Virus record (IMG/VR): IMGVR_UViG_3300023196_002342
Length of the DNA: 11,181 nucleotides
Strand: one strand, 5' to 3'
DNA from: a virus
This document shows positions 1 through 11,181 of the stretch, one piece after another. The position numbers and the translations under genes are program-made. How positions within the stretch are numbered: the stretch's first letter is position 1; each line of letters opens with the position of its first letter. A model generated the notes under the pieces. The model made no database searches. It was not told the DNA's origin and worked only from the letters and a program-made list of their open reading frames with translations.

Positions 1-55
1 TACTTAATTAATTATAATTAATTAATTAATAAATATAATAATAAGAGATAATATG
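1..55. repeat. Left copy of an exact 55-bp direct terminal repeat (identical to 11127-11181). Indicates a circular or circularly permuted genome, most likely a k-mer-length assembly overlap.
   Basis: Base-by-base comparison: tacttaattaattataattaattaattaataaatataataataagagataatatg occurs at both ends of the window. Confidence 0.9.
4..25. repeat. Perfect 22-bp palindrome TTAATTAATTATAATTAATTAA built from TTAA units, about 30 bp upstream of the first plus-strand gene. The same element recurs at 11130-11151 inside the terminal overlap.
   Basis: The reverse complement of 4-25 equals the sequence itself. It is low-complexity and AT-only. Confidence 0.6.
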
Positions 56-469
56 AGTACCATAACCCTTAGTATACCCCAAGAAGTGAAGGATAAGCTA
101 ACAAAAGAAGCTAATTATAGTGCATTAGTAACTAGATTAGTAAAAGAACACTACTCTAAGGCAGATGACCCTGAGATATTAAAGATTAAAAGGAAACAGC
201 TAGAGGAAGAGATGAAAGAGAAGTTAAAAGATTTTGATTATAAAATTGAGATTGTTGAGAAAGAAAGGGATACGATTGATAAGGTTAAGAAACAGAATAT
301 TAAAAGAGTTAAGGATAAAAGTGAGAGTATTAAAAAGAACTTCAAGGATATAGCAAAACGAGATATAACAGATACAGAGTTAAAAGAGGCTATAAGGAGA
401 ATGAATAACCCAGAAATAGATGACTTTAACATATGGGCATTTGTTGAAGAATTAAATGAAGATTCTTAA
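53..469 (+). CDS. Ribbon-helix-helix (CopG/Arc-like) N-terminal domain followed by a long, highly charged coiled-coil-like region. Likely a DNA-binding regulator, and a speculative small-terminase candidate.
   Basis: 138-aa ORF. The N-terminus ITLSIPQEVKDKLTKEANYSALVTRLVKEHY fits a beta-strand/helix/helix RHH pattern. The remainder is K/E-rich heptad-like sequence. It is the first gene after the control region, and its 3' end overlaps the next gene by 14 nt. Confidence 0.5.
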   Translation: MSTITLSIPQEVKDKLTKEANYSALVTRLVKEHYSKADDPEILKIKRKQLEEEMKEKLKDFDYKIEIVEKERDTIDKVKKQNIKRVKDKSESIKKNFKDIAKRDITDTELKEAIRRMNNPEIDDFNIWAFVEELNEDS

Positions 470-1058
470 TTTGTATGCTGGAATAGGGGGGAATCGTAGA
501 TTATGGGGTAATCAGCATGATATAACAGCTGTTGAAATAAACCCAAAAATAGCTGAAATATATGGGAGCTTCTTTCCAAATGATACCATTATAATAGGAG
601 ACGCTCACCAATATTTATTAGAACACTTTGAGGAGTTTGATTTTATATGGAGTTCACCTCCATGCCCTAGTCATAGCAAGGTTAGAAAAGCAACTCACCA
701 ACAAAATAAACCTATCTTTCCTAACATGGAGCTATATGAAGAGATTTTGTTTTTGAAAGGTTATTTTAAAGGAAAATGGGTTATTGAGAATGTAATCCCT
801 TGGTATGAGCCTTTAATTAAAGGTAAGAAAATAGGAGGGCATTTATATTGGAGTAATTTTATAATAAATGAAATAAAAGGGTATGGAAGTAGAGAGCATG
901 ATTCTAAAGTAGAGGTCTTACAAAAAAGAAAAGGATTTGATTTATCTAAATATGAGGGTATCGATAAAAAATTAATATTAAGAAATTGCGTAGAATCTGA
1001 GTTTGGTTTGCATATTCTTGAATCATCAACCAATAAAATACAAAAAACCTTAATATAA
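456..1058 (+). CDS. Compact DNA (cytosine-5)-methyltransferase-like protein, 200 aa.
   Basis: Motif I LNLYAGIGG (FxGxG type), motif II AVEINP, motif IV SSPPCPSHS (catalytic Pro-Cys), motif VI VIENV, and a C-terminal RNCVESEFGLHIL resembling motif X (GN.V..). The motif order matches the C5-MTase family. Confidence 0.75.
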   Translation: MKILNLYAGIGGNRRLWGNQHDITAVEINPKIAEIYGSFFPNDTIIIGDAHQYLLEHFEEFDFIWSSPPCPSHSKVRKATHQQNKPIFPNMELYEEILFLKGYFKGKWVIENVIPWYEPLIKGKKIGGHLYWSNFIINEIKGYGSREHDSKVEVLQKRKGFDLSKYEGIDKKLILRNCVESEFGLHILESSTNKIQKTLI

Positions 1059-1111
1059 TATGTATACTAAAGAATAGAAAGGTTTATAAAGGTTACTTTC
1101 TAACTAACTAT

Positions 1112-1170
1112 GTAGATTAGGGATAAAGAATGATTCTAAATCACTCTCTTTTTCATCTTCCCTAGTCTAC
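1112..1170. promoter_or_regulatory. 12-bp inverted repeat GTAGATTAGGGA (1112-1123) / TCCCTAGTCTAC (1159-1170) with one G:T position. It encloses an inner AGAATGATTCT palindrome. Candidate operator or stem-loop in the 122-bp gap before the second RHH gene.
   Basis: Arms paired manually: 11 Watson-Crick pairs plus 1 G:T. Lies in the only sizeable intergenic gap of the plus-strand block, ending 10 nt before the ATG at 1181. Confidence 0.5.
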
Positions 1171-1180
1171 AAGAAATAAA

Positions 1181-1321
1181 ATGGTAAAAACATTAAATGT
1201 AGCATTTGAAGAAGAACACTTTAAGGAACTTAAAGAAATAAAAGATAATTCTAAACTTAGTGGTAAGGCTAATAGTTGGGAAGCTTTTATTTTATGGAAG
1301 TGTGGGGTTAAAATAAAATGA
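1181..1321 (+). CDS. Small ribbon-helix-helix-like protein, 46 aa (MVKTLNVAFEEEHFKELKEIKDNSKLSGKANSWEAFILWKCGVKIK).
   Basis: Translated by hand and below the ORF-track size cutoff. KTLNVAF strand plus two helices fits the RHH pattern. The stop overlaps the next ATG (ATGA at 1318-1321). Confidence 0.45.
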   Translation: MVKTLNVAFEEEHFKELKEIKDNSKLSGKANSWEAFILWKCGVKIK

Positions 1322-1461
1322 CAGACAAAAAAACCACCTTAGAAATTGCTAATAAAATTTGTTATATGCTTTTTAATAAAGAGTTCAAAGAATTAACAGA
1401 AACAGAAAAGCAAGAATTTAAAAAATTTATATTAGAATGTGAGGGTATAACAATAAAATAA
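1318..1461 (+). CDS. Hypothetical small protein, 47 aa (MTDKKTTLEIANKICYMLFNKEFKELTETEKQEFKKFILECEGITIK).
   Basis: Hand-translated ORF. Translationally coupled to the upstream ORF (ATGA), and ends 1 nt before the next ATG. A GGGGT Shine-Dalgarno-like element lies about 10 nt upstream. Confidence 0.4.
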   Translation: MTDKKTTLEIANKICYMLFNKEFKELTETEKQEFKKFILECEGITIK

Positions 1462-1462
1462 A

Positions 1463-1705
1463 ATGGGAAAATATAACCTATGTGCAACCAAAGAAGATTG
1501 GGAAAATCTATACAAAGAAGTAGAGGCTTTGGGTTTTGATGTGAAACACTTTAAGAAAAGCCAATCTTTTGATAGTGCACTAGTTCAGTTGGACATTATG
1601 AAAGATAAGAAAGAAGAAAATAAAATGACATGTGATTGCGGAAATGAAATAAAAGAATATCCAGAGGGAGATGATACTTTGGAAATATGCGAGGAATGTA
1701 GATAA
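1463..1705 (+). CDS. Hypothetical protein with a C-terminal zinc-ribbon-like motif (CDCG...x16...CEEC).
   Basis: 80-aa ORF from the track. Four Cys arranged CxC/CxxC at the C-terminus. Tightly packed within the operon. Confidence 0.55.
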   Translation: MGKYNLCATKEDWENLYKEVEALGFDVKHFKKSQSFDSALVQLDIMKDKKEENKMTCDCGNEIKEYPEGDDTLEICEECR

Positions 1706-1706
1706 A

Positions 1707-1889
1707 ATGATAGAAGATAAGAAATTAAAAATTAAAGTGGGTTCAAAAGAAGAAGCATACTGGTCTGAAGTTGTAGACAATGCTACATCACAGGTTGAAG
1801 ATATGGAAAAAGCCTTGAAATTTCAAAAAGCTGTTTTAGATATGGCTAAAGATAAATTGTTGAAAGGAGGTATTGATAATGATAATTGA
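1707..1889 (+). CDS. Hypothetical helical protein, 60 aa. Start moved to the ATG at 1707.
   Basis: The track ORF 1671-1889 would overlap the previous gene by 35 nt. The in-frame ATG at 1707 sits 1 nt after the upstream stop, with GAGGAA about 10 nt upstream. Confidence 0.5.
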   Translation: MIEDKKLKIKVGSKEEAYWSEVVDNATSQVEDMEKALKFQKAVLDMAKDKLLKGGIDNDN

Positions 1890-2331
1890 AGAAAAAACAG
1901 AAGCTCTAACAAACACTAATAAGCCTATGGTAAAATGGGTAATTAGTGGTAAAAAGTTTAATACCTTTAACGAGGATTATAATAAGTTTAAACTGGGTGA
2001 CTATGTTAAACTAACTACTGAAGTTAATGGAAAATATACCAATATTAAGACTATGGAGTTATCAACCCCAGAAGAAAGCCAAAAAGAAGCTCAAAATGGC
2101 TCTAATACGCTTACAAATGAAGCGGGTGAGATAATTAAAGGTATAATAATTAATAAAACTCAGTCTCCTAACTCCTATGAATTTGGAAAAGCTGGAAATA
2201 GGTTTAAATTATACTTTGAAGATGTTGAAGATTTAAAGCATAAGATAGAAGAATTAATTGCTGAAGGGTTATATTTACCAGATGTTAATGAATCTTTAGA
2301 GATTCAACCTAGTGAATTTGGTAAAGAATAA
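1879..2331 (+). CDS. Hypothetical protein, 150 aa. The N-terminal half is beta-rich and could be a small OB/SH3-like fold. Function unknown.
   Basis: The track starts at TTG 1873. The ATG at 1879 lies 8 nt downstream of a strong AGGAGG (1865-1870). No catalytic motif recognised. Confidence 0.6.
   Translation: MIIEEKTEALTNTNKPMVKWVISGKKFNTFNEDYNKFKLGDYVKLTTEVNGKYTNIKTMELSTPEESQKEAQNGSNTLTNEAGEIIKGIIINKTQSPNSYEFGKAGNRFKLYFEDVEDLKHKIEELIAEGLYLPDVNESLEIQPSEFGKE
2289..2306. terminator. Perfect 7-bp stem with a 4-nt loop, TGAATCT-TTAG-AGATTCA, at the point where the two convergent gene blocks meet. Candidate bidirectional transcription stop or RNA-stability element.
   Basis: Arms verified base by base. 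The hairpin covers the stop codon of the Hjc-like gene (2304-2306) and lies inside the 3' end of the 150-aa plus-strand gene. No flanking U-tract. Confidence 0.3.
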
Positions 2332-2645
2332 ATACATTTAATCTCTTTTTGAGAGGGTGAACCTGTACCTTTACGATAATATATCCACAATTCTGCCCGG
2401 GTTTTGTTTGTCATCGCAAATTGTTTTATCCTCTCAAATTGAGATTTTTCTTTTTTACTAGGATAATATTTTTTTTTAATTGTTTCTTTAACTTCTACTA
2501 ATAAAATTAATCTGCCATCTTTAATAATCATAAAGTCAGCTCCTATCTGGGCAATAGCTATTTTTAAGACAGAGTCTTTGCCGTAAATATTTTCAAGTTC
2601 TTTCTTTGCTTTATATTCACCAACATAACCGCTTCTATATGTCAT
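2304..2645 (-). CDS. hjc: Archaeal-type Holliday junction resolvase (Hjc family, PD-(D/E)xK nuclease).
   Basis: 113 aa. YRSG..GEYKAKKELE (N-terminal Glu), GADFMII (Asp) and LLVEVKET (E-x-K), followed by KKKYY...F....., are collinear with the Hjc pattern (YRKG..AEREL...VDLVA...IEVK...KK..Y) at the same length. Confidence 0.75.
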   Translation of the reverse strand: MTYRSGYVGEYKAKKELENIYGKDSVLKIAIAQIGADFMIIKDGRLILLVEVKETIKKKYYPSKKEKSQFERIKQFAMTNKTRAELWIYYRKGTGSPSQKEIKCIYSLPNSLG

Positions 2646-2761
2646 AGTCCAGATTCTTTAAATTCATTATAACAACCCCAACAAGTGTACCCCTCATCAG
2701 CATTACCATAACCCTCATCATATTCTAGGTCTGGTCTATCTCCGCATTTTCTACATTCCAT
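2642..2761 (-). CDS. Zinc-ribbon miniprotein, 39 aa (MECRKCGDRPDLEYDEGYGNADEGYTCWGCYNEFKESGL).
   Basis: Hand-translated. CxxC...x19...CxxC. The stop overlaps the hjc ATG (ATGA), and its ATG lies 2 nt after the fibre gene stop. Confidence 0.5.
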   Translation of the reverse strand: MECRKCGDRPDLEYDEGYGNADEGYTCWGCYNEFKESGL

Positions 2762-2763
2762 TT

Positions 2764-3987
2764 TTAAGCATTCTCCGCTATAATATGCCAGTTACTCCCA
2801 TCACATATTATAGTTATAAAATTAGTTCCTGAAGATAAACTTTTTGTTGTAGAACCATCTATCGTTTCACTTGAATTACCATCTAGTGTAACAACTCCTC
2901 CTGCCGCACTAATATTTTTTACGGTTAATACTCTTCCTGCTGAACCTGAGGCTGCGGGTAGTGCTATTGTTGTTACTCCCCCCATCATACTTTGTTGATT
3001 TACTAATAAAACACATTCATCAATTGCTACGGTATGGGTAGCATTTCCATTATCTGTAACAGTGTCTTGTTGTAATGCTAAACTTCCCGCTACGTGTAAA
3101 TGGTGTAATGGACTTGTCGTATTTATTCCAACATAGCCATCTTTAGTAATTCTCATTCGTGTAACTAAACTTGTACTTGACGCTGTTTGTAAACTTATTC
3201 TTCCAGGTGTTGCACTACTTGGTGTTGCATCTGCTGTAAATAATATTCTTGCTGAATTTTGGTCTGAACTCCCATCATAACCCAAACCTCTCATTTCCCA
3301 TATTGCATCGCCATGATTTATTGCCGCGGGACTTGCTAAACTTCCTCTATAAGCATAGGCATCTAGTTTAACATGACTTGATGCAGCTCTATAACTTGAC
3401 ATTGTAGTTATACAAGTTGAGCCATCATTTATTATTTGTAAATCTGTTACAGGTGTTGCTGTGTTTATTCCAACTCTACCATTTGCACCATCAACAAAGA
3501 ACGCATTTTCGTTATTGCTACTTTCTACCCTAAAATCTACATCTGAACCCTGTTCGTTAAAAACTGCTTTACCTGTTACATACAATGCTATATCAGAATT
3601 AGCCGTAGTAGTTCCTCCAACAACAACGCTGTCAACTGTTCCACTGGAATCCGTTGGGTGTAATACTGTTCCTGTGTCTGTCCATTCACTACTTCCCCCT
3701 GCTGCTGCCCATTTTATACCTGTTGCTTCTCCACTATCTGCTGTTAAAACTTGGTCATTACTTCCAACGCCTAACCTTGTTATAGTTGAACCATTATTAA
3801 CTATAACATCTCCTTTGGTGGTTGTGGGGTCAGTTAATAAAGAACCTGCTTCCGTTTTCAAAGCTCCCTCTTTTATTGCTGAAACATTAGGAAGATATAA
3901 CTCAGAATTATCAGTTTTTGCTGGTTGTCCAAAACCCATCAATTTCTTTATTGGGTCTGCTTTTCTTCCGCTACCTTGTCCGCCCAT
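2764..3987 (-). CDS. Tail fibre / receptor-binding protein-like, 407 aa, rich in G/S/T/A/N.
   Basis: The N-proximal GDVIVNNGSTITRLGVGSNDQVLTADSGEATGIKWAAAGG block is typical of phage fibre shaft/anchor regions. The rest has long beta-type low-charge composition and a C-terminal ...TLDGNSSETIDGS....ITIICDGSNWHII module. AGGAGGG lies 8 nt upstream of the ATG. The gene sits distal to the head genes. Confidence 0.6.
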   Translation of the reverse strand: MGGQGSGRKADPIKKLMGFGQPAKTDNSELYLPNVSAIKEGALKTEAGSLLTDPTTTKGDVIVNNGSTITRLGVGSNDQVLTADSGEATGIKWAAAGGSSEWTDTGTVLHPTDSSGTVDSVVVGGTTTANSDIALYVTGKAVFNEQGSDVDFRVESSNNENAFFVDGANGRVGINTATPVTDLQIINDGSTCITTMSSYRAASSHVKLDAYAYRGSLASPAAINHGDAIWEMRGLGYDGSSDQNSARILFTADATPSSATPGRISLQTASSTSLVTRMRITKDGYVGINTTSPLHHLHVAGSLALQQDTVTDNGNATHTVAIDECVLLVNQQSMMGGVTTIALPAASGSAGRVLTVKNISAAGGVVTLDGNSSETIDGSTTKSLSSGTNFITIICDGSNWHIIAENA

Positions 3988-3988
3988 T

Positions 3989-4117
3989 CTAACAGCCCTC
4001 CTGTTCTAGTGTTGGGTCTTCTGCTGTGATAGTTGTACCCGCGACTAATCCCTCAGTATTTGGATAGTCTGTTCTTATAAATCGAGTTCCTATTGAGCCA
4101 GTTCCTACATTTACCAT
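3989..4117 (-). CDS. Possible small ORF, 42 aa (MVNVGTGSIGTRFIRTDYPNTEGLVAGTTITAEDPTLEQEGC).
   Basis: Hand-translated. Fills the gap between the 60-aa ORF and the fibre gene, and its stop lies 1 nt before the fibre ATG. No clear Shine-Dalgarno element. Confidence 0.3.
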   Translation of the reverse strand: MVNVGTGSIGTRFIRTDYPNTEGLVAGTTITAEDPTLEQEGC

Positions 4118-4140
4118 AACTATGTAAAGTTCTAAAGTTT

Positions 4141-4323
4141 TTATTTCTTTTCTTTTGGTTTAGAAGTTTCAGAAGTAGATTTCTCATCTTTAGGATTAGG
4201 TTTAGCTACTGGGTCTGGTGTATCTGGATATTTTGCTTCTAAGTCTGCAACAGCCTTTAAATTATTAGTTTCTAGAAAATGAGCTTTTAACCTAGTTAAT
4301 GTTTCTTTAGTCATTTTAAGCAT
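4141..4323 (-). CDS. Hypothetical small protein with a helical N-terminus and a disordered Pro/Lys-rich tail. The alternative start at 4314 gives 57 aa.
   Basis: 60-aa ORF overlapping the capsid gene stop by 8 nt. Its position just after the capsid gene suggests a head completion or accessory role. No motif recognised. Confidence 0.45.
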   Translation of the reverse strand: MLKMTKETLTRLKAHFLETNNLKAVADLEAKYPDTPDPVAKPNPKDEKSTSETSKPKEKK

Positions 4324-5179
4324 CTGTGTTAGTAATCAAACATACAGCACGAGGGTCTGTAAGCAATGTTATTCCTAATTCATAAACCCTAAATTTAGTA
4401 CCTATACCTCTATCTTCAATAGCTACGCTAGTTGTATTAGTGTGACTCTTCCATGTTGCTGCCGCTGCTGGTATTAAAACTGGTGCTGAATCTGCTACAA
4501 CATTATTAGAGACTCTTACCTTTAATCCTAAAAACTCCATTAAAACTCCATTCTTTACCTTTTCACTTGCAAACTGTGGGATACTTGCTCCTTTAGTAGA
4601 AATAAGCCATGTTAAAAGACTTGTCTTTTGTTTTGGATTTAACCATAATTCACCTTGTGAAATATCATAATTATAATCTTCTATATCTTCGATAGCTCCT
4701 AGTATGTCTTTTATTGGGTCTTGTCCGCTTCCCGCATCCCATGCAGCAGTACTTGCAACTGTGCTTATTGTTGATGGACTTTGATTTTCTGTAATTACAT
4801 TGTAAATATCTGTATCTACTTGTTTTACTACTGCCCTTGTTAATCTTAATAGTGTTCTTGCTACTACATCAATATCGCTGCTTTTCATGTCTTCCATAGA
4901 AATAGTATCCTCAGCTGCATATTTTTGAACATAACTTGTATTTCTTGTCCATGTTGCTTCTAAAGTTGGGAATAATGATAATGGTGAAACATCACTAATA
5001 ACTGTTGGAGCTGTTGGAGTTAAATCCGCTGCGGTTTCCTGGTACCATCTTATATGGTCAGCTGTTGTTGTGCTATTAGTAATAGCCGATTTAAAAATAT
5101 AATTAACTAATGCAAAACCTTTAACTGTCTTATCTATATCCAGTCCTCTAATATCAGCCATTTCAACACTATCTGCCAT
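4316..5179 (-). CDS. Major capsid protein, HK97-fold family, with no delta domain.
   Basis: 287 aa. Blocks KYAAEDTISMEDMKSSDIDVVARTLLRLTRAVVKQVDTDIYN, DPIKDILGAIEDIEDYNYD...LWLNPKQKTSL and EFLGLKVRVSNNV match conserved HK97-type capsid signatures. GGAGGT lies 7 nt upstream. Follows the scaffold and decoration genes. Confidence 0.8.
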   Translation of the reverse strand: MADSVEMADIRGLDIDKTVKGFALVNYIFKSAITNSTTTADHIRWYQETAADLTPTAPTVISDVSPLSLFPTLEATWTRNTSYVQKYAAEDTISMEDMKSSDIDVVARTLLRLTRAVVKQVDTDIYNVITENQSPSTISTVASTAAWDAGSGQDPIKDILGAIEDIEDYNYDISQGELWLNPKQKTSLLTWLISTKGASIPQFASEKVKNGVLMEFLGLKVRVSNNVVADSAPVLIPAAAATWKSHTNTTSVAIEDRGIGTKFRVYELGITLLTDPRAVCLITNTDA

Positions 5180-5574
5180 TATGAACCTCCTACTAGAACT
5201 TCAATAACTTCTGCTGCTGATGCTGTTTCTAGTGCAATACCTACACCCTTACCCGCTGCCAATTCTGCTTCTGTTGCTGTTTTAATTGTATTAGTTCCGC
5301 CAGTGCTTACCCATGCTCCTGCTGTAATTCCTGCACCTGAATCCGTTAAATCAAAAATACCTCTTCTAAATAATGCTAATTGTGTTCTCCCGTCACTTGC
5401 TACTTTTTCCCTTGCTGCTATTCCTGCGAATACATCACCACTTCCATTATTCGCAGCTGCTGTTCTTGGGTCTGTTAGTTCGCAAATAGTTCCTTTTTCA
5501 ATACCTGCACCATCTGCCACTGTGAAATTCATTGGGTCATCAATTCGTAATTTTAAAACTGCTTCGTTAGCCAT
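5179..5574 (-). CDS. DUF2190-like head decoration / capsid cement protein.
   Basis: 131 aa, Gly/Ala-rich. GDVFAGIAAREKVASDGRTQLALFRRGIFDL...GKGVGIALETASAAEVIEVLV resembles the DUF2190 pattern. Sits immediately upstream of the capsid gene with a TAATG overlap. Confidence 0.6.
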   Translation of the reverse strand: MANEAVLKLRIDDPMNFTVADGAGIEKGTICELTDPRTAAANNGSGDVFAGIAAREKVASDGRTQLALFRRGIFDLTDSGAGITAGAWVSTGGTNTIKTATEAELAAGKGVGIALETASAAEVIEVLVGGS

Positions 5575-5594
5575 AAATATTTATAATTTCCTTT

Positions 5595-5602
5595 TATATA
5601 AA
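5595..5602 (-). promoter_or_regulatory. TTTATATA (minus strand) in the 43-bp gap upstream of the decoration and capsid genes. Candidate internal TATA-type promoter element.
   Basis: The 8-mer ends 20 nt upstream of the ATG at 5574. It lies in one of the few non-overlapping junctions in the late block. Specificity is weak in an AT-rich genome. Confidence 0.2.
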
Positions 5603-5617
5603 TCTTTCGTTAATTTA

Positions 5618-5908
5618 CTACTTTTCCTCAATTAAACCCTTTAAGGCTAATTGTGAATATTCAACAGGTGAAATATCCTTTTCATTCGTTATAGGACTTC
5701 CCTGACTTTGTCCGCCTAAAATGTTTTGTGCTACTAATTGTTCTTGTTTCTTCATTAACTCCTCTGTTTTTTTGTTCGCGGCTTCAATCCTTTCAGCTGT
5801 CTCAGTTGCTCTGTCAATAATATTATTGACTTTCGAGTCATTCCCGTTATCAGTATTCCCTCCTGTCTTAGTTGATTCTTCGTTTTCGTTTTCTTCTTCT
5901 TCACTCAT
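5618..5908 (-). CDS. Scaffolding protein-like: acidic N-terminus with a helical coiled-coil core.
   Basis: 96 aa, MSEEEENENEE... then IIDRATETAERIEAANKKTEELMKKQEQLVAQ. Located just upstream of the decoration and capsid genes, and no prohead protease is present. AGGAGGT lies upstream. Confidence 0.5.
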   Translation of the reverse strand: MSEEEENENEESTKTGGNTDNGNDSKVNNIIDRATETAERIEAANKKTEELMKKQEQLVAQNILGGQSQGSPITNEKDISPVEYSQLALKGLIEEK

Positions 5909-5918
5909 TTTTACCTCC

Positions 5919-7079
5919 TTATATAGTTTCTCTTAAAATACCCTTTTCTATTTTTTTTCTTCTTCTTTTCCCCTGTATTGCTTCCATTTCTCCAATTAAA
6001 AAAGCTATTTGTGTTGGGTCAAATTGTTGGGTTTGTTCCAATACATCTGCCCTTGCTTCTCGTATTGTGCTTCTTTGGTCTTGAATATCTGCTAAAACAT
6101 CATAATACTGCCCACTTCTTTTAACAGCTGGGTCTAAAATAGAAGCTTGTTGAAGTTGGTACTCAACTATTTCTAAATCTTTATCTAATTGGTTTAGTTC
6201 TGCTAAAGCTTTTGGTGTGGTTATTCCTCCTGCTGCATGAGTACCCATTAAGGTAGAACCCATTTGTCCAACTGTATTAACTGAGGACTGGATTTCATTA
6301 ACTTTTTTCCTATCTAAGAGTCTATCTGTAAGAGTGCTAGGGCTTATATCTCCTAAAAATGCAGAAGTTCCCACGACTCCTAAAGTGGTTGTTCCAATAC
6401 TTGTTCCTATTTTAGTTGAAATAAAAGCCATTGTTGAGGCAATAACTGGAGCCAGTGCTGCTATTAATGCCGTCCCTGAAACTGTTGCGATAGTTACTCC
6501 TAACGCCTTTCCAAAATCTGTTTCTGCCATATCAGCCGCGGTTTTATTACTTAATTCCTTTCCTGTTAATTTTTCTATACCCTCTCCTATCATAACAGAC
6601 GGAGTTAAACCTATTTCTGCAATCTTTTCAATAGCCCTTTCTTGTCTACCCTCTAATTCTTGGAATCCTCCCTCTGATTCAAATTGTTTCTCAATGGATG
6701 TCGGTTCTAATTGTGCCTCTGCCTGTTCTGCTGCCCCTATAACTCCTCGCCCTAATCTTTCAGTTCCTAACCTAGAGCCAACTTCCCTTGCACCCTCTGG
6801 AGTTTTTAATTTCTTAGTTTCTCTTTGAATTATCTCTTCTGCTTCTTCTGGACTTAAACCCATGAAAATTCTTCCGTCTGGTAATTCTACCCCTGAAACT
6901 TTTCTTGTTTTTACATCTCTAAAAACTTCTGGAGTTCCTTTAGTTGCTGGAAATTCTGGACTAGGTTGTATAGCTTGATTTCCTTGAGCATCTATTTCAA
7001 CTATATCTGTTTTATTTTCTTCAGATTTCTTCTTTTTCTTCCTGCCTCCTAAGAATGAAGCTGGGACTTGTGCTACCAT
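5919..7079 (-). CDS. Internal virion / ejection or tape-measure-like protein with a Gly/Ala/Thr-rich hydrophobic core and basic termini.
   Basis: 386 aa. N-terminal GGRKKKKKSEE, C-terminal GKRRRKKIEKG. The central stretch ALGVTIATVSGTALIAALAPVIASTMAFISTKIGTSIGTTTLGVVGTSAFLG looks like membrane-spanning glycine-zipper segments. Helical flanks. Confidence 0.45.
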   Translation of the reverse strand: MVAQVPASFLGGRKKKKKSEENKTDIVEIDAQGNQAIQPSPEFPATKGTPEVFRDVKTRKVSGVELPDGRIFMGLSPEEAEEIIQRETKKLKTPEGAREVGSRLGTERLGRGVIGAAEQAEAQLEPTSIEKQFESEGGFQELEGRQERAIEKIAEIGLTPSVMIGEGIEKLTGKELSNKTAADMAETDFGKALGVTIATVSGTALIAALAPVIASTMAFISTKIGTSIGTTTLGVVGTSAFLGDISPSTLTDRLLDRKKVNEIQSSVNTVGQMGSTLMGTHAAGGITTPKALAELNQLDKDLEIVEYQLQQASILDPAVKRSGQYYDVLADIQDQRSTIREARADVLEQTQQFDPTQIAFLIGEMEAIQGKRRRKKIEKGILRETI

Positions 7080-7273
7080 AGTTTCTTATATCTCCCTTTA
7101 TATTTAAAAAATTCTAAAAATGCTCCTAATATAATCATAAATACACCTCTAATAAATAAATTATTGCTACTTGTTGCATTTGTCATAAATATAACTCCTG
7201 TGGAAGTCATGGCTAAAGCTGCCGTATTAATTAAAGTTTCAATAATTGGTTTATGTCCGTTTCTTTTATTCAT
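7073..7273 (-). CDS. Small two-TM membrane protein (holin-like topology).
   Basis: 66 aa. Two hydrophobic stretches (IIETLINTAALAMTSTGVIFM and LFIRGVFMIILGAFLEFF) and a basic C-terminus KYKGRYKKLW. Overlaps both neighbouring genes by 7-8 nt. Confidence 0.45.
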   Translation of the reverse strand: MNKRNGHKPIIETLINTAALAMTSTGVIFMTNATSSNNLFIRGVFMIILGAFLEFFKYKGRYKKLW

Positions 7274-8351
7274 TTTCAGTTAAAGACGCTTGAACCTCAT
7301 TTTCTTGAAATCCTATTTGTCCTGTGTTCTTTTTCTCATCTGTTTGGACGTTATCCATAAGGCTAGGAGGTCTATTAAATTTAATTTTTAAAGCTGTTTG
7401 ATTTAATAAATCAGTTTCTAAATCTGTTTGTTCCCTTGTGTAAATTGGCTCAAATGTCAAATAACCAACCTTAGAGGCTGCTTCTGTAAAATTCTCACTA
7501 GTTGCAATAACTCTAGGCACTCCTACCGCTTGATAAAAGAAATTCTCTAAATATTGTATCCATGCTATTCGGTCTTGTGGTTTAACTCCACTATCTTTCA
7601 ATTCAGCTGTATCTTTAGGTAAAACTAAAACTTCTCCGTTCTTAACGGCATCTTGATACTGTGTCATAATCTTATTTCTTTTAGTTACGTTATCTGAATC
7701 AATATATAGTATGCCTAAAGCTAGTTCTCTATGTTTAATCAACCTTTCATCCTTTAGGGCTTCATTTCTTGCATCTATAACCCATTTACAAGATTCAATT
7801 ACAGAAGTTCCATGTATTTCGTTGGCTATCCTATCGTTTACTAAATGAAGTATTTGGTGAGGTCTAAAAACCTTATTAACGCCATTTTTAACATTGTTTC
7901 TCTGTTCATACCTTATAATCATACCTTGCCCGTTAACTACAACCCGCATATCACCTGTATAAAGAGGCTTTATGTTGATTAAATTGTTATTTTCATCCCT
8001 TATAATCTCAGCGTAAGCATCCCCAAAGACTTTCTTTTGAACTTGTAAATTCCAAAATATAGACTGGCTTGAGTCTTCACCCCATCCTATAAAAGAACCT
8101 AATACCAATGTAATTGGTTGAGAAGCTGTCCAACCTTTGCCCGTTGTCCAAGTTGCTAAACTATCAATAGCTTTCTTTAGTTCTGGAATAGTCTTATAAT
8201 AACCTAGATATTCATTACTATTAGGATAATCGTAATAAGTTTCTTTTTGTTGTTGTGTTGGTTGGTCTGGTTGTTGAGCATTAACAGAAAAGTCTTTAAC
8301 TGTGCCGCTTAAATCGGTTGTTGCTGATGAGTTTGCATTTAGTTCTGCCAT
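7266..8351 (-). CDS. Portal protein (HK97/Phage_portal-like).
   Basis: 361 aa. VFGDAYAEIIRDENNNLINIKPLYTGDMRVV...IIRYEQ...FRPHQILHLVNDRIANEIHGTSVIES and the later YQAVGVPRVI...FEPIY blocks follow the portal family pattern. Located in the head module near the terminase. Confidence 0.75.
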   Translation of the reverse strand: MAELNANSSATTDLSGTVKDFSVNAQQPDQPTQQQKETYYDYPNSNEYLGYYKTIPELKKAIDSLATWTTGKGWTASQPITLVLGSFIGWGEDSSQSIFWNLQVQKKVFGDAYAEIIRDENNNLINIKPLYTGDMRVVVNGQGMIIRYEQRNNVKNGVNKVFRPHQILHLVNDRIANEIHGTSVIESCKWVIDARNEALKDERLIKHRELALGILYIDSDNVTKRNKIMTQYQDAVKNGEVLVLPKDTAELKDSGVKPQDRIAWIQYLENFFYQAVGVPRVIATSENFTEAASKVGYLTFEPIYTREQTDLETDLLNQTALKIKFNRPPSLMDNVQTDEKKNTGQIGFQENEVQASLTENE

Positions 8352-8986
8352 TATAAGTCTAATTGAAAAGGTATTAAAAAAGATAGCTGAGTTGTTTCGG
8401 CATCCGTTACCGTTCTATTTGCTGGGTCGTGCATAAAACCAATAACTCCTATTCCAGAGCGAGTACTCCAACCCTCAACTGTACACCTCATTATTTCCCC
8501 TTTCTTAAAAATAACATTTGAAGCTATTGTTAATGGTACGCAATTAGTTTTATATTCCCTTGCACCACTTGAACCAGTAGTATAGGTTTTAGTTTGTGCA
8601 TCTGCTATTTCTGTTTCTGTTGAGCCATCAAATTTCCTTAATTTAATTATAAAATATTGTTGTGTACCTACTGCATTACTACTTGCAAAAGTTACAATAT
8701 TACAATAACCATTTCCCTTTATAGTTTGAGTTCTGTTAAATGTTAAATCAAAATCTATGTCTATGTCTTTGGTAAATCCTCCGGTAGTTGTTGAAACTTC
8801 TGTCTGTATATCTTGAGAGTATATGCTATCATTAGCTGTCAGAAGTGAATTTGTTGTTGTGTCGTCTATTGTTCTGAACCCATAAAACTCTATAATCCCA
8901 CTTGCCTCTATAATATCTATAAAGTTATAGGTTGCTATGGCTTGTTCGCCAGATTCTAAAAAATTATGTGGGATTTTACGAGCCAT
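8351..8986 (-). CDS. Hypothetical beta-rich protein, probably a virion or tail-hub component. No motif recognised.
   Basis: 211-aa ORF translationally coupled to the portal gene (TAATG). T/S/N/I-rich beta-strand-like composition. Lies between the connector and portal genes. Confidence 0.4.
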   Translation of the reverse strand: MARKIPHNFLESGEQAIATYNFIDIIEASGIIEFYGFRTIDDTTTNSLLTANDSIYSQDIQTEVSTTTGGFTKDIDIDFDLTFNRTQTIKGNGYCNIVTFASSNAVGTQQYFIIKLRKFDGSTETEIADAQTKTYTTGSSGAREYKTNCVPLTIASNVIFKKGEIMRCTVEGWSTRSGIGVIGFMHDPANRTVTDAETTQLSFLIPFQLDL

Positions 8987-8992
8987 TGATTA

Positions 8993-9349
8993 TCAAGTCT
9001 CCTGTATAAAGTCAGTTGTGTACTTCTCTTTTAATTGGTTAATTGCATCTGTTAGCCTTGTATAATTTACATCCAACATAGTTTGCGCTTCTGCTCTACT
9101 TGTATACCCACTCATATCAAAATTAATAGCTCCTAGAGCAGCATGACTACTTGCCGCATCTTCTAGAATCTTCTTTAAGTCTGCATCTAATGAACTATAA
9201 ACATCAACCCAATTAACTCTAGTTACTGCATTTATATAAGATTCTGCTTGGTTAATAAGCTGGGTATATTGCCCATCTGTTATAGCACTATTCACATTAG
9301 TTCCTGCTTTTAGCTGAACTGCTGCCTTATCACATAATGTTTCAGTCAT
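8993..9349 (-). CDS. Head-tail connector / adaptor-like protein (gp6-like, all-alpha).
   Basis: 118 aa. The N-terminal ...AAVQLKAGTNVNSAITDGQYTQLINQAESYINAVT resembles the start of gp6-like connector proteins. Size and helical character fit. The position directly after the terminase is atypical. Confidence 0.45.
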   Translation of the reverse strand: MTETLCDKAAVQLKAGTNVNSAITDGQYTQLINQAESYINAVTRVNWVDVYSSLDADLKKILEDAASSHAALGAINFDMSGYTSRAEAQTMLDVNYTRLTDAINQLKEKYTTDFIQET

Positions 9350-9352
9350 TTT

Positions 9353-10672
9353 TTATATTCTAATGGAGCTTAACCATACATTTAAGTTTTTCTCTTTTAC
9401 TATCCATGCCGCTCTTATTAATCCCTCAACAATATGGCTAAAATTCCCAAAGATTTTAACTTGATTAGATTCATCTTTGGTAAATTCATATTGTATACTC
9501 CTTAAAGACGCCCTTATATTATCATCATCCAGTAATCTGATTTGATTCTTTTCCATAAGCATTAGCAAATTATCATAAAGGTCTTCTTTCAATAATCTTG
9601 ATTTGCTTTTGAATCTATCCAGTGGTCTTGCCCTATTATTAATAGCAACAACTTTCCTTTTAGTTTGTTCATTATCTAGTAAATGGTCAAATATCCCAAC
9701 CCCTAAAGAGCCAGAACCTGCATCTAAATAGATATGTTGGAAATCATATAGCTTATCTAGGTTTAATATTTGTCTTTCGGTTTGAGTTGTTAAGGTCTTC
9801 CTTGTTACTACCGATTCAACATGAATTAAATGGTTGTTTTCCATTCTTCTTAATATCTCAAAAGTGCTGTCATCATCCCCCATTCTTGCAATATCTACGC
9901 CTAAACTATAAACTTGGTCTTTCTTAATGGTGTTAGGTCTTTCTAATGTACAAATCCTATTTATCAACTCATCACTAAAGTATCTCCTTAAATCATCTAT
10001 AAACAATCCTAAATATTCTTGAGAGTATCTTAACTCACTCATATCTTCCCTTTCTTCTTCTAGTATCTTAATACTTGCCTCTTTTCTTTCCTTAGTCCAA
10101 CCCTCACTAACTGGTCTATTTTTAATAACCTCTTCACTTGATATATGAAATACCTTAAACCTATTATTCTTGTTTATGAAGCATTCATAGAAATAACCCG
10201 TCTTTCCGTGTGGGGTGCTACACATCCATATCTTCCCACCTGTTGTTAATAGTGTTGGTTTGGCTGCAATCCACATAAGCTCTGGCATTCTGGACGCTTC
10301 ATCAACTATCAATATGTCACCTGTAAAACCCCTTACACTATCACCCGTATTCCCAACTGGTCTCGCTATAACCTTACTTCCATTAGTTAAGGTAATCGTA
10401 CTCTTAGTTGGCTTCTTCTTTCCTTTGTGTATTTTCCTTTTGTCCGTTCTCTCTAAGAAGTCTAAAATCATAATAATGATAAGTTGTGCTTGGTCTTCAG
10501 TTAGGGACACTACAATGATGTTAGTGTTAGGGTGTTCTATCATATATTTACCTGCTTTATGTGATAGGGTCATAGTTTTGCCTACTTGTCTACCAGTGCA
10601 TAGTAATACATTGCCGTCTTCTTCTATTATATCCTTTTGCCAGTCATCTAATACTATGGCTTTTTTTTCCAT
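9353..10672 (-). CDS. terL: Terminase large subunit (ATPase plus RNase H-like nuclease).
   Basis: 439 aa. Walker A CTGRQVGKT, Walker B GDILIVDEAS, coupling motif MCSTPHG, and nuclease-domain acidic residues in LGVDIARMGDDDSTFEI and IYLDAGSGSLG. Confidence 0.9.
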   Translation of the reverse strand: MEKKAIVLDDWQKDIIEEDGNVLLCTGRQVGKTMTLSHKAGKYMIEHPNTNIIVVSLTEDQAQLIIIMILDFLERTDKRKIHKGKKKPTKSTITLTNGSKVIARPVGNTGDSVRGFTGDILIVDEASRMPELMWIAAKPTLLTTGGKIWMCSTPHGKTGYFYECFINKNNRFKVFHISSEEVIKNRPVSEGWTKERKEASIKILEEEREDMSELRYSQEYLGLFIDDLRRYFSDELINRICTLERPNTIKKDQVYSLGVDIARMGDDDSTFEILRRMENNHLIHVESVVTRKTLTTQTERQILNLDKLYDFQHIYLDAGSGSLGVGIFDHLLDNEQTKRKVVAINNRARPLDRFKSKSRLLKEDLYDNLLMLMEKNQIRLLDDDNIRASLRSIQYEFTKDESNQVKIFGNFSHIVEGLIRAAWIVKEKNLNVWLSSIRI

Positions 10673-10742
10673 TTTTTAAAATAATTAAAAAAAATAAGAT
10701 GAGGTAGTATATATTTTTTTATATTTTAAAAAATTAAAAAAT

Positions 10743-10767
10743 ATTTCTGGGGGGATAGCCCAGGAAT
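10743..10767. repeat. Inverted repeat ATTTCTGGG / CCCAGGAAT forming a 9-bp stem (one G:T) with a 7-nt loop, at the edge of the GC-rich island and about 70-95 nt upstream of the terL ATG.
   Basis: Manual pairing of 10743-10751 with 10759-10767. Confidence 0.45.
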
Positions 10768-10801
10768 GCGAGAAATACCCCTAATCGTCGCTTACTGTCC
10801 G

Positions 10802-10841
10802 CAGGAACTTTTAAGCGTTGATAGGAAGTTATAAGCGTTTA
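10802..10841. repeat. Tandem 20-bp direct repeat (iteron-like): CAGGAACTTTTAAGCGTTGA / TAGGAAGTTATAAGCGTTTA, 16/20 identical. A degenerate third copy, GAACTTTTCACGCTT, lies at 10955-10969.
   Basis: Aligned by hand. The shared core is AGGAA-TT-TAAGCGTT with a 20-bp (two-turn) periodicity. ACGCTTAA at 10964-10971 is the inverse of TTAAGCGT. Confidence 0.55.
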
Positions 10842-10872
10842 ATACGCCCTTTAAATACTTTTTAAGCTCCCT

Positions 10873-10902
10873 AAGTCCTTATATTTAGGTAGTTAAGGAC
10901 TT
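10873..10902. repeat. Perfect 9-bp inverted repeat AAGTCCTTA / TAAGGACTT separated by 12 nt.
   Basis: Manual pairing of 10873-10881 with 10894-10902. Lies inside the ORF-free control region. Confidence 0.5.
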
Positions 10903-11126
10903 CTACTCAAATCATAGAATTAATAATTGAAAGTACATATAACGTACATTGTGCGAACTTTTCACGCTTAAACTAATGGATTTAGGCACTACTTTTTATT
11001 AAGAGACATCTATTTTAAGAACTGTAGTGGTTAAAATGCTGTATGCATTTTAAAAGCTTTTAATTTATATAAGATTATTGGCGATTTAATAAAAAGTATT
11101 CGACTATATGCAAACATTAATATACT

Positions 11127-11181
11127 TACTTAATTAATTATAATTAATTAATTAATAAATATAATAATAAGAGATAATATG
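11127..11181. repeat. Right copy of the exact 55-bp direct terminal repeat (identical to 1-55). It includes the ATG of the first plus-strand gene.
   Basis: Identical to 1-55. The unique genome length is therefore 11,126 bp. Confidence 0.9.

Follow-up and report, generated by a model that had tools for sequence, protein, structure and literature searches.

The smallest isolated tailed phages are the phi29-like phages and Salmonella phage astrithr (11,569 bp), which hold roughly 15-25 genes in about 11-12 kb and follow a short-tailed design around a portal or connector (PMC11476376). The linear astrithr genome has genes for an endolysin, a DNA polymerase, an upper collar connector and a packaging ATPase of the phi29 type. 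Among the isolated terminase-type tailed phages compared here, the smallest is Rhodococcus phage RRH1 (14,270 bp), which carries TerL, portal, capsid and connector genes, no annotated replication gene, and annotated TerS, endolysin, major tail, tape-measure and minor tail proteins of a siphovirus tail. The Streptomyces satellites MiniFlayer and MulchRoom encode their own TerL, portal, scaffold, capsid, adaptor and fibre and no replicase; MiniFlayer has a small genome (17.4 kb, 26 genes) with an annotated TerS, a physical 1,057-bp terminal repeat, no integrase and a known helper with matching GC content and codon usage (PMC10690885). Satellite phage P4 (11.6 kb), which encodes no capsid protein, and the capsid-forming cf-PICIs are elements of 10-15 kb that are packaged in small HK97 capsids, integrate into the chromosome and have their own integrases and replicases. 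The cf-PICIs encode capsid, portal, connectors and terminase (PMC10690885). Protease, TerS and HNH are present, a fibre is absent, and tails come from helper phages.

Small DTR-bearing HK97 contigs from IMG/VR, including a 'twilight zone' below 11.6 kb, have been catalogued in bulk (Aguilar et al. 2025, 10.1101/2025.06.18.659913), and the general phenomenon is thus already known. A tail gene is reported in only 4.3% of the twilight genomes, the remainder being described as heterogeneous, and the clade characterised in that study (about 8.9 kb, human gut, temperate) encodes RepA and an integrase and has no terminase, portal or tail genes.

The window analysed here, the whole 11,181-nt stretch of IMG/VR record IMGVR_UViG_3300023196_002342, is a complete genome with capsid, portal and DNA-packaging genes in about one quarter of the usual tailed-phage size. 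It resembles the catalogued IMG/VR-style contigs (up to 20 kb, closed by terminal repeats, with an HK97 capsid gene) and, at 11,126 bp, falls just below the 11.6-kb threshold. In contrast to the characterised clade, its lineage has TerL, portal, cement and fibre genes, no Rep and, with one exception, no integrase. It has none of the listed astrithr genes, carrying instead a two-domain, nuclease-bearing TerL on a circular or permuted map. RRH1 is 28% larger and differs in its TerS, endolysin and siphovirus tail genes. MiniFlayer differs in its length, physical terminal repeat, TerS and known helper. Unlike cf-PICIs and P4, the window lacks an integrase, and none of its relatives was found integrated. 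Neither RRH1 nor MiniFlayer is among the TerL and capsid BLAST matches listed. The initial annotation had placed the window at the extreme small end for terminase-packaging viruses and had held that the smallest tailed phages use a different gene set, and both statements agree with the sizes and gene contents of RRH1 and astrithr.

Genome closure and the rightward module

1-55 (no strand): left copy of the terminal overlap, an exact copy of 11127-11181 that marks closure of the assembly path
11127-11181 (no strand): right copy of the terminal overlap, an exact copy of 1-55
10673-11126 (no strand): non-coding control region, 454 bp, between divergent modules

The longest exact match between prefix and suffix of the window is 55 bp, far beyond chance, and removal of the duplicate gives the unit length of 11,126 bp. 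The junction is spanned by two relatives. L003, from another IMG sample (93-98% identity), matches the window from 3695 to 11181 and then runs unbroken into 1-469, while L074, a contig of 11,749 bp (93-95% identity), covers essentially the whole circle. L072 (11,139 bp), whose ends lie inside TerL, has the order methylase module, non-coding region, TerL, as in the window. The genome is closed, with a circular or circularly permuted map, as the initial annotation had claimed from the terminal identity. Fifty-five is a common assembler k-mer size, and the overlaps in closed relatives range from 34 to 127 bp with break points scattered over different genome positions. The most likely origin of the 55-bp repeat is a k-mer overlap left by the assembler, marking a circular or permuted map; a physical terminal repeat is improbable.

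Coding density is 92.5% and the genes form two divergent modules split by the control region. Twenty genes are well supported, or 21-22 if very short ORFs are counted, slightly below the previous estimate of about 24. The control region contains a G+C hairpin (10747-10763), a hairpin with a 9-bp stem (10873-10902) and two direct 17-nt repeats (10803-10819 and 10823-10839); no ORF, Rfam match or tRNA was found in it. Its identity to L003 and L072 is 93.5%, a level of conservation equal to that of coding DNA, and we infer that it may contain the origin, the packaging site and promoters.

53-469 (+): 138-aa protein whose gene opens the rightward module, no family match
456-1058 (+): short C5 cytosine DNA methyltransferase, 200 aa; PF00145, 2.2e-8, above cut-off, residues 1-82 only
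1181-1705 (+): three small ORFs (46, 47 and 80 aa), poorly conserved
1671-1889 (+): helical protein, 72 aa, kept in about 31 loci
1873-2331 (+): 152-aa protein, present in about 10 loci, no significant structure match
2304-2645 (-): basic protein, 113 aa, with weak similarity to Hjc/PD-(D/E)XK nucleases

By eye, the 138-aa protein has a ribbon-helix-helix-looking N-terminus followed by a long charged helix and is a candidate regulator or small terminase; the sibling L072 has other genes in its place. The methyltransferase also matches TIGR00675 (9e-6), is of equal length in L028 and L072, and probably serves in anti-restriction. In relatives, the 72-aa gene directly precedes TerL or follows the scaffold-like gene. 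The 113-aa protein gave matches below cut-off to PF01870 (0.013) and phrog_6591 (0.038), an E..D..E-V-K pattern seen by eye only, and no PDB sequence match. Judged from its sequence, it is possibly a junction resolvase debranching DNA ahead of packaging.

Packaging, head and entry proteins

9353-10672 (-): TerL with ATPase and nuclease domains, 439 aa; PF03237, 2.5e-12; phrog_2, 8e-41 (residues 5-423)
8993-9349 (-): candidate head-tail connector/adaptor, 118 aa, present in 42 loci
7266-8351 (-): portal, 361 aa; PF04860, 1.3e-12, above the curated cut-off; phrog_12, 1e-18
5618-5908 (-): scaffold candidate, acidic and helical, 96 aa, net charge -10, between portal and capsid genes
5179-5574 (-): cement/decoration protein, 131 aa; PF09956 (formerly DUF2190), 4.2e-7, above cut-off
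4316-5179 (-): major capsid protein with a compact HK97 fold, 287 aa; PF25209, 1.3e-11; phrog_1650, 6e-25

Both TerL domains resemble solved chains, the ATPase (residues 23-166) those of 4zni (8.7e-8) and the nuclease (residues 250-410) those of 5tge and 5m1f (about 1e-4). An AlphaFold model of the capsid protein (pLDDT 73) retrieved D3, HK97 gp5, NF5 and encapsulins in Foldseek (E about 1e-13, TM 0.6-0.65), and the cement gene is present in 23 of 23 large loci. Profile and structure searches thus uphold the TerL, portal, HK97 capsid and DUF2190-like cement proteins of the previously described head module. Its scaffold-like member, for which no family match was found, is a candidate by position and composition only; the protein is kept in all seven mapped closed genomes. 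The 118-aa protein has no PDB match and no phage BLAST match. One relative matches PF05135 (gp6-like connector) at 4.6e-4, and this single weak match makes it a connector-like candidate; another family member matches 'head completion protein' at 7e-3. No small terminase subunit and no maturation protease were identified in the window.

8351-8986 (-): all-beta jelly-roll protein, 211 aa, a core gene and diversification hot spot found in 40 loci
7073-7273 (-): basic membrane protein, 66 aa, hydrophobic segment 38-58, net charge +7
5919-7079 (-): fast-evolving protein, 386 aa, with a Gly/Ala/Thr-rich hydrophobic segment at about residues 191-224
4141-4323 (-): lysine-rich protein, 60 aa
3989-4117 (-): 42-aa ORF, conserved across about 30 loci; in some relatives it is joined to the N-terminus of the fibre
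2764-3987 (-): fibre/receptor-binding protein, 407 aa; phrog_9942, 7e-11; phrog_18345, 8e-8 ('tail fiber')

The fibre, the other part of the earlier assignment that held, resembles the solved trimeric fibre chains 8ol4, 8oml, 8ojn and 8ond over residues 206-358 (2.5e-5). Lectin, pentaxin or propeller domains occupy its position in relatives, and the 42-aa ORF is probably its attachment module. The 211-aa protein was modelled with a pLDDT of 86 and a pTM of 0.82, and Foldseek returned jelly-roll domains from the PDB and terminal domains of large phage fibres and spikes from BFVD (TM about 0.5). Its gene is 64.8% identical at the nucleotide level to those of L072 and L002, most other shared genes being 87-99% identical. 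On the basis of the model, it is a candidate for an exposed, receptor-contacting tail or vertex protein.

Only six database homologues were found for the 386-aa protein, and every mapped relative has a counterpart at the same position. The window's own protein has no PHROG match; the L007 counterpart resembles the glycine-zipper segment of tape-measure, tail-lysin and internal-virion PHROGs (5e-13 to 6e-4). It is a candidate internal virion protein that would be ejected and insert into a membrane. The 66-aa protein is possibly lysis/holin-like or a virion membrane-contact protein; small proteins occupy its position in relatives, the L009 copy with PF12841. The connector-like, jelly-roll, membrane-inserting and trimeric fibre assignments are less well supported than those of TerL, portal, capsid and cement.

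An uncultured family of small genomes

A search of 1.84 billion proteins places the capsid protein in a family that falls into 316 clusters when grouped at 50% identity. Of the 52 loci that are 10 kb or longer, 50 have TerL, portal, capsid and cement genes, and dozens of relatives share one gene order: TerL, 118 aa, 211 aa, portal, 300-386 aa, scaffold-like, cement, capsid, about 45 aa, fibre. Eleven distinct closed units, the window and ten relatives, span 10,681-12,535 bp with a mean of 11,779 bp. No contig exceeded 13.5 kb (120 protein clusters, 60 IMG/VR loci and 80 metagenome loci), the contigs inspected had no host flanks, and no integrated copy was found in about 200 contigs. Among 50,697 phage records there is no close deposited phage: TerL is at most 26% and the capsid protein at most 25% identical, and the portal and connector-like protein have zero matches. 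No description of the lineage was found in the literature, though small HK97 genomes have been catalogued in bulk. The window thus appears to represent a large, discrete, uncultured and apparently undescribed family, in line with the distinct lineage proposed in the initial annotation.

To our knowledge, a T=3 tailed-phage capsid has never been observed. The closed genomes of the family lie in the size range expected from modelling for such a capsid. The family mean of 11.78 kb equals the value that the model of Luque et al. 2020 gives for T=3 (11.78 kb, 42.8 nm; T=4, 17.98 kb), a T-number extrapolated from a model with wide confidence intervals (PMC7762592).

Autonomy and alternative explanations

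We interpret the window as the complete genome of a minimal terminase-packaging HK97/portal virus from an uncultured miniature lineage with host-dependent replication, with a probability of about 0.5. Neither the window nor 150 accessory families of its relatives yielded a replication protein, whether replicase, primase, helicase or Rep. The window has no endolysin or holin family match, and an endolysin is not recognisable in any member of the family. Genes for a tail tube, nozzle or baseplate could not be recognised, although we infer that a tail is present.

These absences are what a satellite virus would show, one with its own small capsid, terminase and fibre that needs a larger co-infecting helper for DNA replication and perhaps, by analogy with MiniFlayer and MulchRoom, for lysis or a tail. 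Such a lifestyle is common in short HK97 genomes (Aguilar et al. 2025). MiniFlayer (17,449 bp) shares the profile of capsid, packaging and fibre genes (TerS, TerL, portal, scaffold, capsid, adaptor, fibre) with neither replicase nor integrase, which counts against the autonomous reading. We regard a satellite as a serious possibility and favour an autonomous virus over it only narrowly. Against a satellite, no helper was identified, the lineage is highly diverse, about 200 contigs yielded no integrated copy and an integrase occurs in one relative only. The adsorption apparatus is the window's own, a fibre with variable lectin-type domains in relatives and the hypervariable jelly-roll protein; this full, fast-diversifying receptor-binding module and the ejection-protein-like gene are expected for independent entry. 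Lack of a replicase is compatible with autonomy, since the isolated RRH1 (14.3 kb) also has none annotated, and an endolysin would be unnecessary if the host were archaeal or wall-less.

An excised or packaged integrative capsid-forming island like a cf-PICI, or a defective prophage, residing in the chromosome and using helper-phage tails, is very unlikely. In its favour, cf-PICIs fit capsid, portal, connector and terminase genes into 10-15 kb (PMC10690885), and one closed relative, L005, encodes a 215-aa tyrosine recombinase (PF00589, 1e-17). However, this recombinase accounts for only one of the 150 accessory families (from 23 near-complete loci), and the window itself has no integrase or excisionase. 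The family contigs found are all at most 13.5 kb, those inspected being free of host flanks, and the window lacks the maturation protease and identifiable TerS that cf-PICIs have and carries the fibre that they lack. An assembly artefact, either a piece of some larger phage genome or a chimera whose ends met at a short repeat, is scarcely credible: the 55-bp overlap alone shows only closure of the assembly graph, but two contigs from other samples span the junction, a third has the same gene order, ten more relatives close at 10.7-12.5 kb with differing break points, no family contig in any set searched exceeds 13.5 kb, and the gene order is coherent at 92.5% coding.

For a minimal autonomous virus, the following cycle can be proposed. 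Together with the small, acidic scaffold-like protein, the capsid protein would assemble around a portal dodecamer, no protease being involved, and TerL would cut concatemeric dsDNA and pump one genome length into the small shell. Cement trimers would stabilise this shell, for which T=3 and a diameter of about 43 nm are most likely. The 118-aa adaptor would close the portal and bear a very short tail, built from the 211-aa jelly-roll protein, the fibre and the fibre's 42-aa anchor. The 386-aa hydrophobic protein would be packaged and then ejected to form a channel through the host membrane. The rightward module would provide DNA protection (methylase) and regulators, and host enzymes alone would make the DNA, starting at the 454-bp non-coding region. 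Weak hints point to an archaeal host.

Genome closure and gene layout

The window measures 11,181 bp with a G+C content of 33.8%, and 55 bp are identical at its two ends, leaving a non-redundant unit of 11,126 bp. Both 55 and 127 are common assembler k-mer sizes; the overlap might thus merely reflect a cycle closing in a de Bruijn assembler, and independent support was therefore sought. L003, a relative from a different IMG sample that is 93-98% identical, aligns from window position 3695 to 11181 and runs on unbroken into positions 1 to 469. L074 (11,749 bp, from a further sample, 93-95% identical) also spans the junction, with essentially the whole circle covered, while L072 (11,139 bp), whose break lies within the large terminase gene (TerL), shows the same order of methylase module, non-coding region and TerL. 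Closure of the genome, which the initial annotation had read from the identical ends, is real, and an assembly artefact is effectively excluded. The differing break points of these close relatives mean a circular or circularly permuted map, in which the 55-bp overlap probably does not mark physical ends. Twenty well-supported genes occupy 92.5% of the 11,126-bp unit and are arranged in two divergent blocks.

Layout of the window
53-2331, plus strand, rightward block of seven small genes
456-1058, plus strand, C5 DNA methylase of 200 aa within the rightward block; only residues 1-82 match the 324-position Pfam model
2304-10672, minus strand, leftward block with the terminase gene last
10673-11126, non-coding stretch of 454 bp between the divergent blocks

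The same short methylase length is found in two relatives (L028 and L072), and the window protein may be a minimal or split methylase. The remaining small proteins of the rightward block had no family match, and PDB sequence searches with the 113-aa (2304-2645, minus strand) and 152-aa (1873-2331, plus strand) proteins returned no credible match. The idea that the 113-aa protein is an Hjc resolvase stays a weak lead and was not supported. No polymerase, primase, helicase, Rep protein, integrase or endolysin was detected in the window using Pfam, PHROGs and NCBIfam, the NCBIfam scan adding nothing further.

Unusual conservation of the non-coding region was considered and rejected, its 93.5% identity being only at the level of coding DNA, and scanning the window for Rfam families and tRNAs yielded nothing. 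The region contains a hairpin with a 9-bp stem (10873-10902). In L003 (around 700-760), both the 3' arm of this hairpin and a stretch 9 nt further upstream are altered, yielding a different 11-bp stem in the same place, so that hairpin formation survives the two changes. Close by lie a G+C hairpin (10747-10763) and a pair of 17-nt direct repeats (10803-10819 and 10823-10839).

Packaging, head and putative adsorption genes

Four genes of the leftward block could be assigned to DNA packaging and head formation.

Packaging and head genes of the window
9353-10672, minus strand, TerL; PF03237 at 2.5e-12, phrog_2 at 8e-41, curated threshold passed
7266-8351, minus strand, portal; PF04860 at 1.3e-12, 48 bits against a cut-off of 39.1, phrog_12 at 1e-18
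5179-5574, minus strand, cement protein; PF09956 at 4e-7, curated threshold passed
4316-5179, minus strand, major capsid protein; PF25209 at 1.3e-11, phrog_1650 at 6e-25, curated threshold passed

TerL residues 23-166 resemble solved TerL ATPase domains and residues 250-410 solved TerL nuclease domains. The AlphaFold model of the capsid protein (pLDDT 73) is similar to D3, HK97 gp5, NF5 and several encapsulins (E about 1e-13, TM 0.6-0.65), and the protein is predicted to adopt a compact canonical HK97-fold. The window thus carries the Duplodnaviria and Caudoviricetes hallmarks of an HK97-fold capsid protein, a two-domain TerL and a portal. The ICTV profile of Caudoviricetes names a capsid maturation protease as fourth hallmark gene (PMC12451611). 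No match to such a family was found among the window proteins or the 150 accessory families of its relatives. The accepted tailed phages P22, T7 and phi29 have no maturation protease and use a scaffold instead, so the missing protease is no bar to Caudoviricetes membership.

A small terminase (TerS) was sought and none identified, the genes upstream of TerL varying among relatives. No support was obtained for the 138-aa product of the first plus-strand gene, which bears no genuine resemblance to the CcdA-like gene lying upstream of TerL in the closed relative L014. A helical protein of 55-72 aa (window 1671-1889; 6399-6578 in L009 and 6124-6312 in L053, two further relatives) is kept in about 31 loci with shifting position, lying directly upstream of TerL, after the scaffold-like gene or, as in the window, in the opposite-strand module. 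A small-terminase or assembly role is possible for this protein.

Candidate tail and fibre genes of the window
2764-3987, minus strand, 407-aa fibre; tail-fibre PHROGs at 7e-11, solved trimeric fibre chains at 2.5e-5
3989-4117, minus strand, 42-aa ORF directly upstream of the fibre gene, kept in about 30 loci
8993-9349, minus strand, 118-aa protein adjoining TerL, present in 42 loci

Fibre residues 206-358 form a repeat module common to the PDB entries 8ol4, 8oml, 8ojn and 8ond ('cell wall surface anchor family protein', 'bd2133'), which we take to be Bdellovibrio trimeric adhesive fibres. In four relatives (L016, L041, L048 and L052) the 42-aa ORF is joined in frame to the fibre N-terminus, and it is probably a detachable fibre-anchor module. 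The sole functional lead for the 118-aa protein is a match of one family member to the gp6-like head-tail connector family at 4.6e-4, lending weak support to a connector-like protein. Sequence-profile searches of the 118-aa and 211-aa families against the PDB gave nothing significant, and PHROG scans of every member of the 211-aa family were empty. The 211-aa protein (8351-8986) yielded a confident all-beta jelly-roll model (pLDDT 86) similar to terminal domains of large phage fibre and spike proteins (TM about 0.5). Its gene has only 64.8% nucleotide identity to L072 and L002, against 87-99% for most other shared genes, a sharp diversification hot spot that looks like cassette replacement of a host-contacting protein. 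Such divergence between near-identical strains is what an exposed protein in contact with the host would be expected to show, and it favours an adsorption device encoded by the virus itself.

The 386-aa protein encoded after the portal gene is fast-evolving and contains a Gly/Ala/Thr-rich hydrophobic segment. Its counterpart in the closed relative L007 resembles the glycine-zipper segment of tape-measure, tail-lysin and internal-virion proteins, with E-values down to 5e-13; the window's own copy gave no such match. These features suggest a virion protein that is ejected and inserts into the membrane. The window showed no gene for a tube, nozzle, tape measure or baseplate, and the candidate parts of a tail at the portal vertex would be the fibre, the weakly supported connector-like 118-aa protein and the fibre/spike-like jelly-roll protein.

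A discrete family with a narrow genome size

Searching a collection of 5.8 billion proteins with the capsid protein returned 495 clusters at 90% identity, and the longest contig among the best 120 of these measures 12,763 bp. An exhaustive HMMER search of 1.84 billion representatives found only 316 capsid clusters at 50% identity. Most full-length capsid proteins of the family are 283-301 aa long, and by these searches the family is discrete. Scans of IMG/VR and of JGI metagenomes gave 60 loci (largest contig 12,859 bp) and 80 loci (largest contig 13,524 bp), respectively; in the 13,524-bp contig the genes follow the same order, two large fibre genes are present and host flanks are missing. 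Indeed, none of the family contigs inspected contains host flanks and none is longer than 13.5 kb, which speaks against the window being a fragment of a larger prophage, as the initial annotation had considered.

TerL, portal, capsid and cement genes occur together in 50 of the 52 loci of at least 10 kb. Eleven distinct self-closing genomes (the window, L005, L007, L014, L022, L030, L036, L077, L120, L135 and L150) range from 10,681 to 12,535 bp and average 11,779 bp. After rotation, the maps of seven closed genomes share one order: TerL, 118-aa protein, 211-aa protein, portal, a 300-386-aa protein, a scaffold-like protein of 80-96 aa, a 138-152-aa protein that is absent in the window, cement protein, capsid protein, an ORF of about 45 aa, one or more fibres and variable small genes. 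The 138-152-aa gene lies between the scaffold-like and cement genes in five of the seven (for example, L005 2819-3277 and L014 7316-7723) and elsewhere in L022. When 150 accessory families drawn from 23 near-complete genomes were surveyed with Pfam and PHROG, the matches included lectin domains, a glycosyltransferase, methylases, and HNH and other nucleases, and no replication or lysis functions. The sole integrase in the survey is a 215-aa tyrosine recombinase (PF00589 at 1e-17) encoded at 8254-8901 of L005, a closed relative of 12,415 bp.

Among deposited phages, TerL finds its best matches, at 22-26% identity, in viruses of 33-144 kb, namely Meiothermus and Thermus phages and the haloarchaeal HGTV-1, and for the capsid protein the identities are 22-25%. 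A tblastn search with the portal and 118-aa proteins returned nothing from 50,697 phage records. On these comparisons no deposited phage is close to the window, and the already classified close relative that the initial annotation had allowed for did not emerge. The smallest genomes of isolated tailed phages measure 11.6 kb (astrid/astrithr, satellite P4), and phi29-like phages have been described as the smallest tailed viruses (PMC11476376). Astrithr encodes an endolysin, a collar connector, a DNA polymerase and an ATPase of phi29 type, which bears out the earlier remark that the smallest tailed phages, of about 11-12 kb, use protein-primed polymerases rather than a gene set like the window's. 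Whereas phi29-like phages and Astrithrvirus have a protein-primed family B polymerase, a linear genome and a terminal protein, the window has no detected polymerase and a circular or permuted map.

Small HK97 genomes have been catalogued in bulk. From IMG/VR, Aguilar et al. 2025 collected 4,730 DTR contigs smaller than 11.6 kb, HK97 capsid genes being present in 536, and found a tail gene in only 4.3% of the capsid-bearing contigs; the clade they describe is temperate, from the gut, 8.9 kb in size and without terminase, portal and tail genes. Their 'twilight' mini viruses combine an encapsulin-domain HK97 protein with RepA and an integrase, whereas the window has portal, TerL and fibre genes and no detected Rep or integrase. 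In its fold, the window capsid model does resemble encapsulins, besides phage capsids. Such bulk catalogues probably include the window. The literature searched contained no description of the lineage, and publications on Charybdis elements, nanohaloarchaeal viruses and COBRA do not concern it. It is a lineage of miniature terminase-packaging viruses, of family level or higher. The corresponding interpretation in the initial annotation is supported, with caveats on the tail, on autonomy and on the earlier cataloguing.

Autonomy, host and capsid size

We consider the window an autonomous virus with a probability of about 0.5. What is observed is a closed genome of about 11 kb that encodes a fibre and the complete set of terminase, portal, HK97 capsid and cement proteins, together with a strict upper size limit across a diverse family. 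Under this reading, the capsid would assemble with a scaffold and without protease, and TerL would pack one genome length of concatemeric dsDNA into a small shell, probably T=3. Adaptor, jelly-roll protein and fibre would form a minimal short tail, the hydrophobic post-portal protein would be ejected, and replication would be carried out wholly by host enzymes, initiated at the non-coding region. The fully specified version, an autonomous, possibly archaeal, small tailed virus packing about 11.8 kb of dsDNA via portal and classical terminase into a T=3 HK97 shell of about 43 nm without any virus-encoded replication protein, is considerably more doubtful. To our knowledge, a T=3 HK97 capsid has never been observed for any tailed virus.

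Dependence on a helper, as in the satellite MiniFlayer, is a serious rival, judged only narrowly less probable. MiniFlayer (17.4 kb; PMC10690885), which depends on a helper, encodes terminase, portal, scaffold, capsid, adaptor and fibre proteins of its own and neither a replicase nor an integrase; the window matches this profile of own encapsidation genes without replication genes. However, the isolated phage RRH1 (14.3 kb) has no annotated replicase either, so the profile does not discriminate, and no helper is known for the lineage. The missing endolysin would be unremarkable if the host were archaeal or wall-less, or if a single small membrane protein, for instance the 66-aa product, brought about lysis.

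We consider an integrative island improbable, since the window encodes no integrase, just one relative (L005) carries a tyrosine recombinase and integrated copies were not found. Integrative satellites such as cf-PICIs have an integrase and reside in the chromosome; cf-PICIs encode replicase, protease, TerS and HNH proteins and no adsorption genes, whereas the window has a fibre and no detected replicase, protease or TerS.

Species-representative genomes gave only three family matches, two short contigs in unclassified 'archaeon' MAGs and one in a Melioribacteraceae MAG (L069, L070 and L068). All three are whole viral contigs without host flank, and an archaeal host based on MAG binning is suggestive at best. 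Neither sigma-70-like promoters (33 against 45 expected from shuffles) nor intrinsic terminators (4 against 6 expected) are enriched in the window, and these motifs thus permit no call of host domain. TARA identifiers in some contig names hint at ocean samples.

Tailed viruses are the most abundant known viruses, and we know of none with a capsid below T=4 other than the prolate phi29 head; the smallest isolated ones lack a classical terminase. Luque et al. 2020 raise the absence of T=1 and T=3 tailed phages as an open question, and their allometric model assigns 11.78 kb and 42.8 nm to T=3 and 17.98 kb to T=4 (PMC7762592). The mean of the 11 closed genomes, 11,779 bp, coincides with the T=3 value. 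As a coherent lineage that has terminase, portal, HK97 capsid and cement proteins and whose closed genomes cluster tightly near this size, the window and its family are a sequence-defined candidate for these missing small capsids of tailed viruses. Synthesis and joint expression of the capsid, scaffold-like, portal and cement genes are feasible given their short length, and no host is needed for such a direct test of the T-number. The lineage also sets a floor for the gene content of a terminase-packaging virus, about 20 genes and no replicase, and frames a clear question: can such an entity live autonomously, or is it necessarily a satellite? The L005 recombinase offers a possible route to an integration site and hence to the host.
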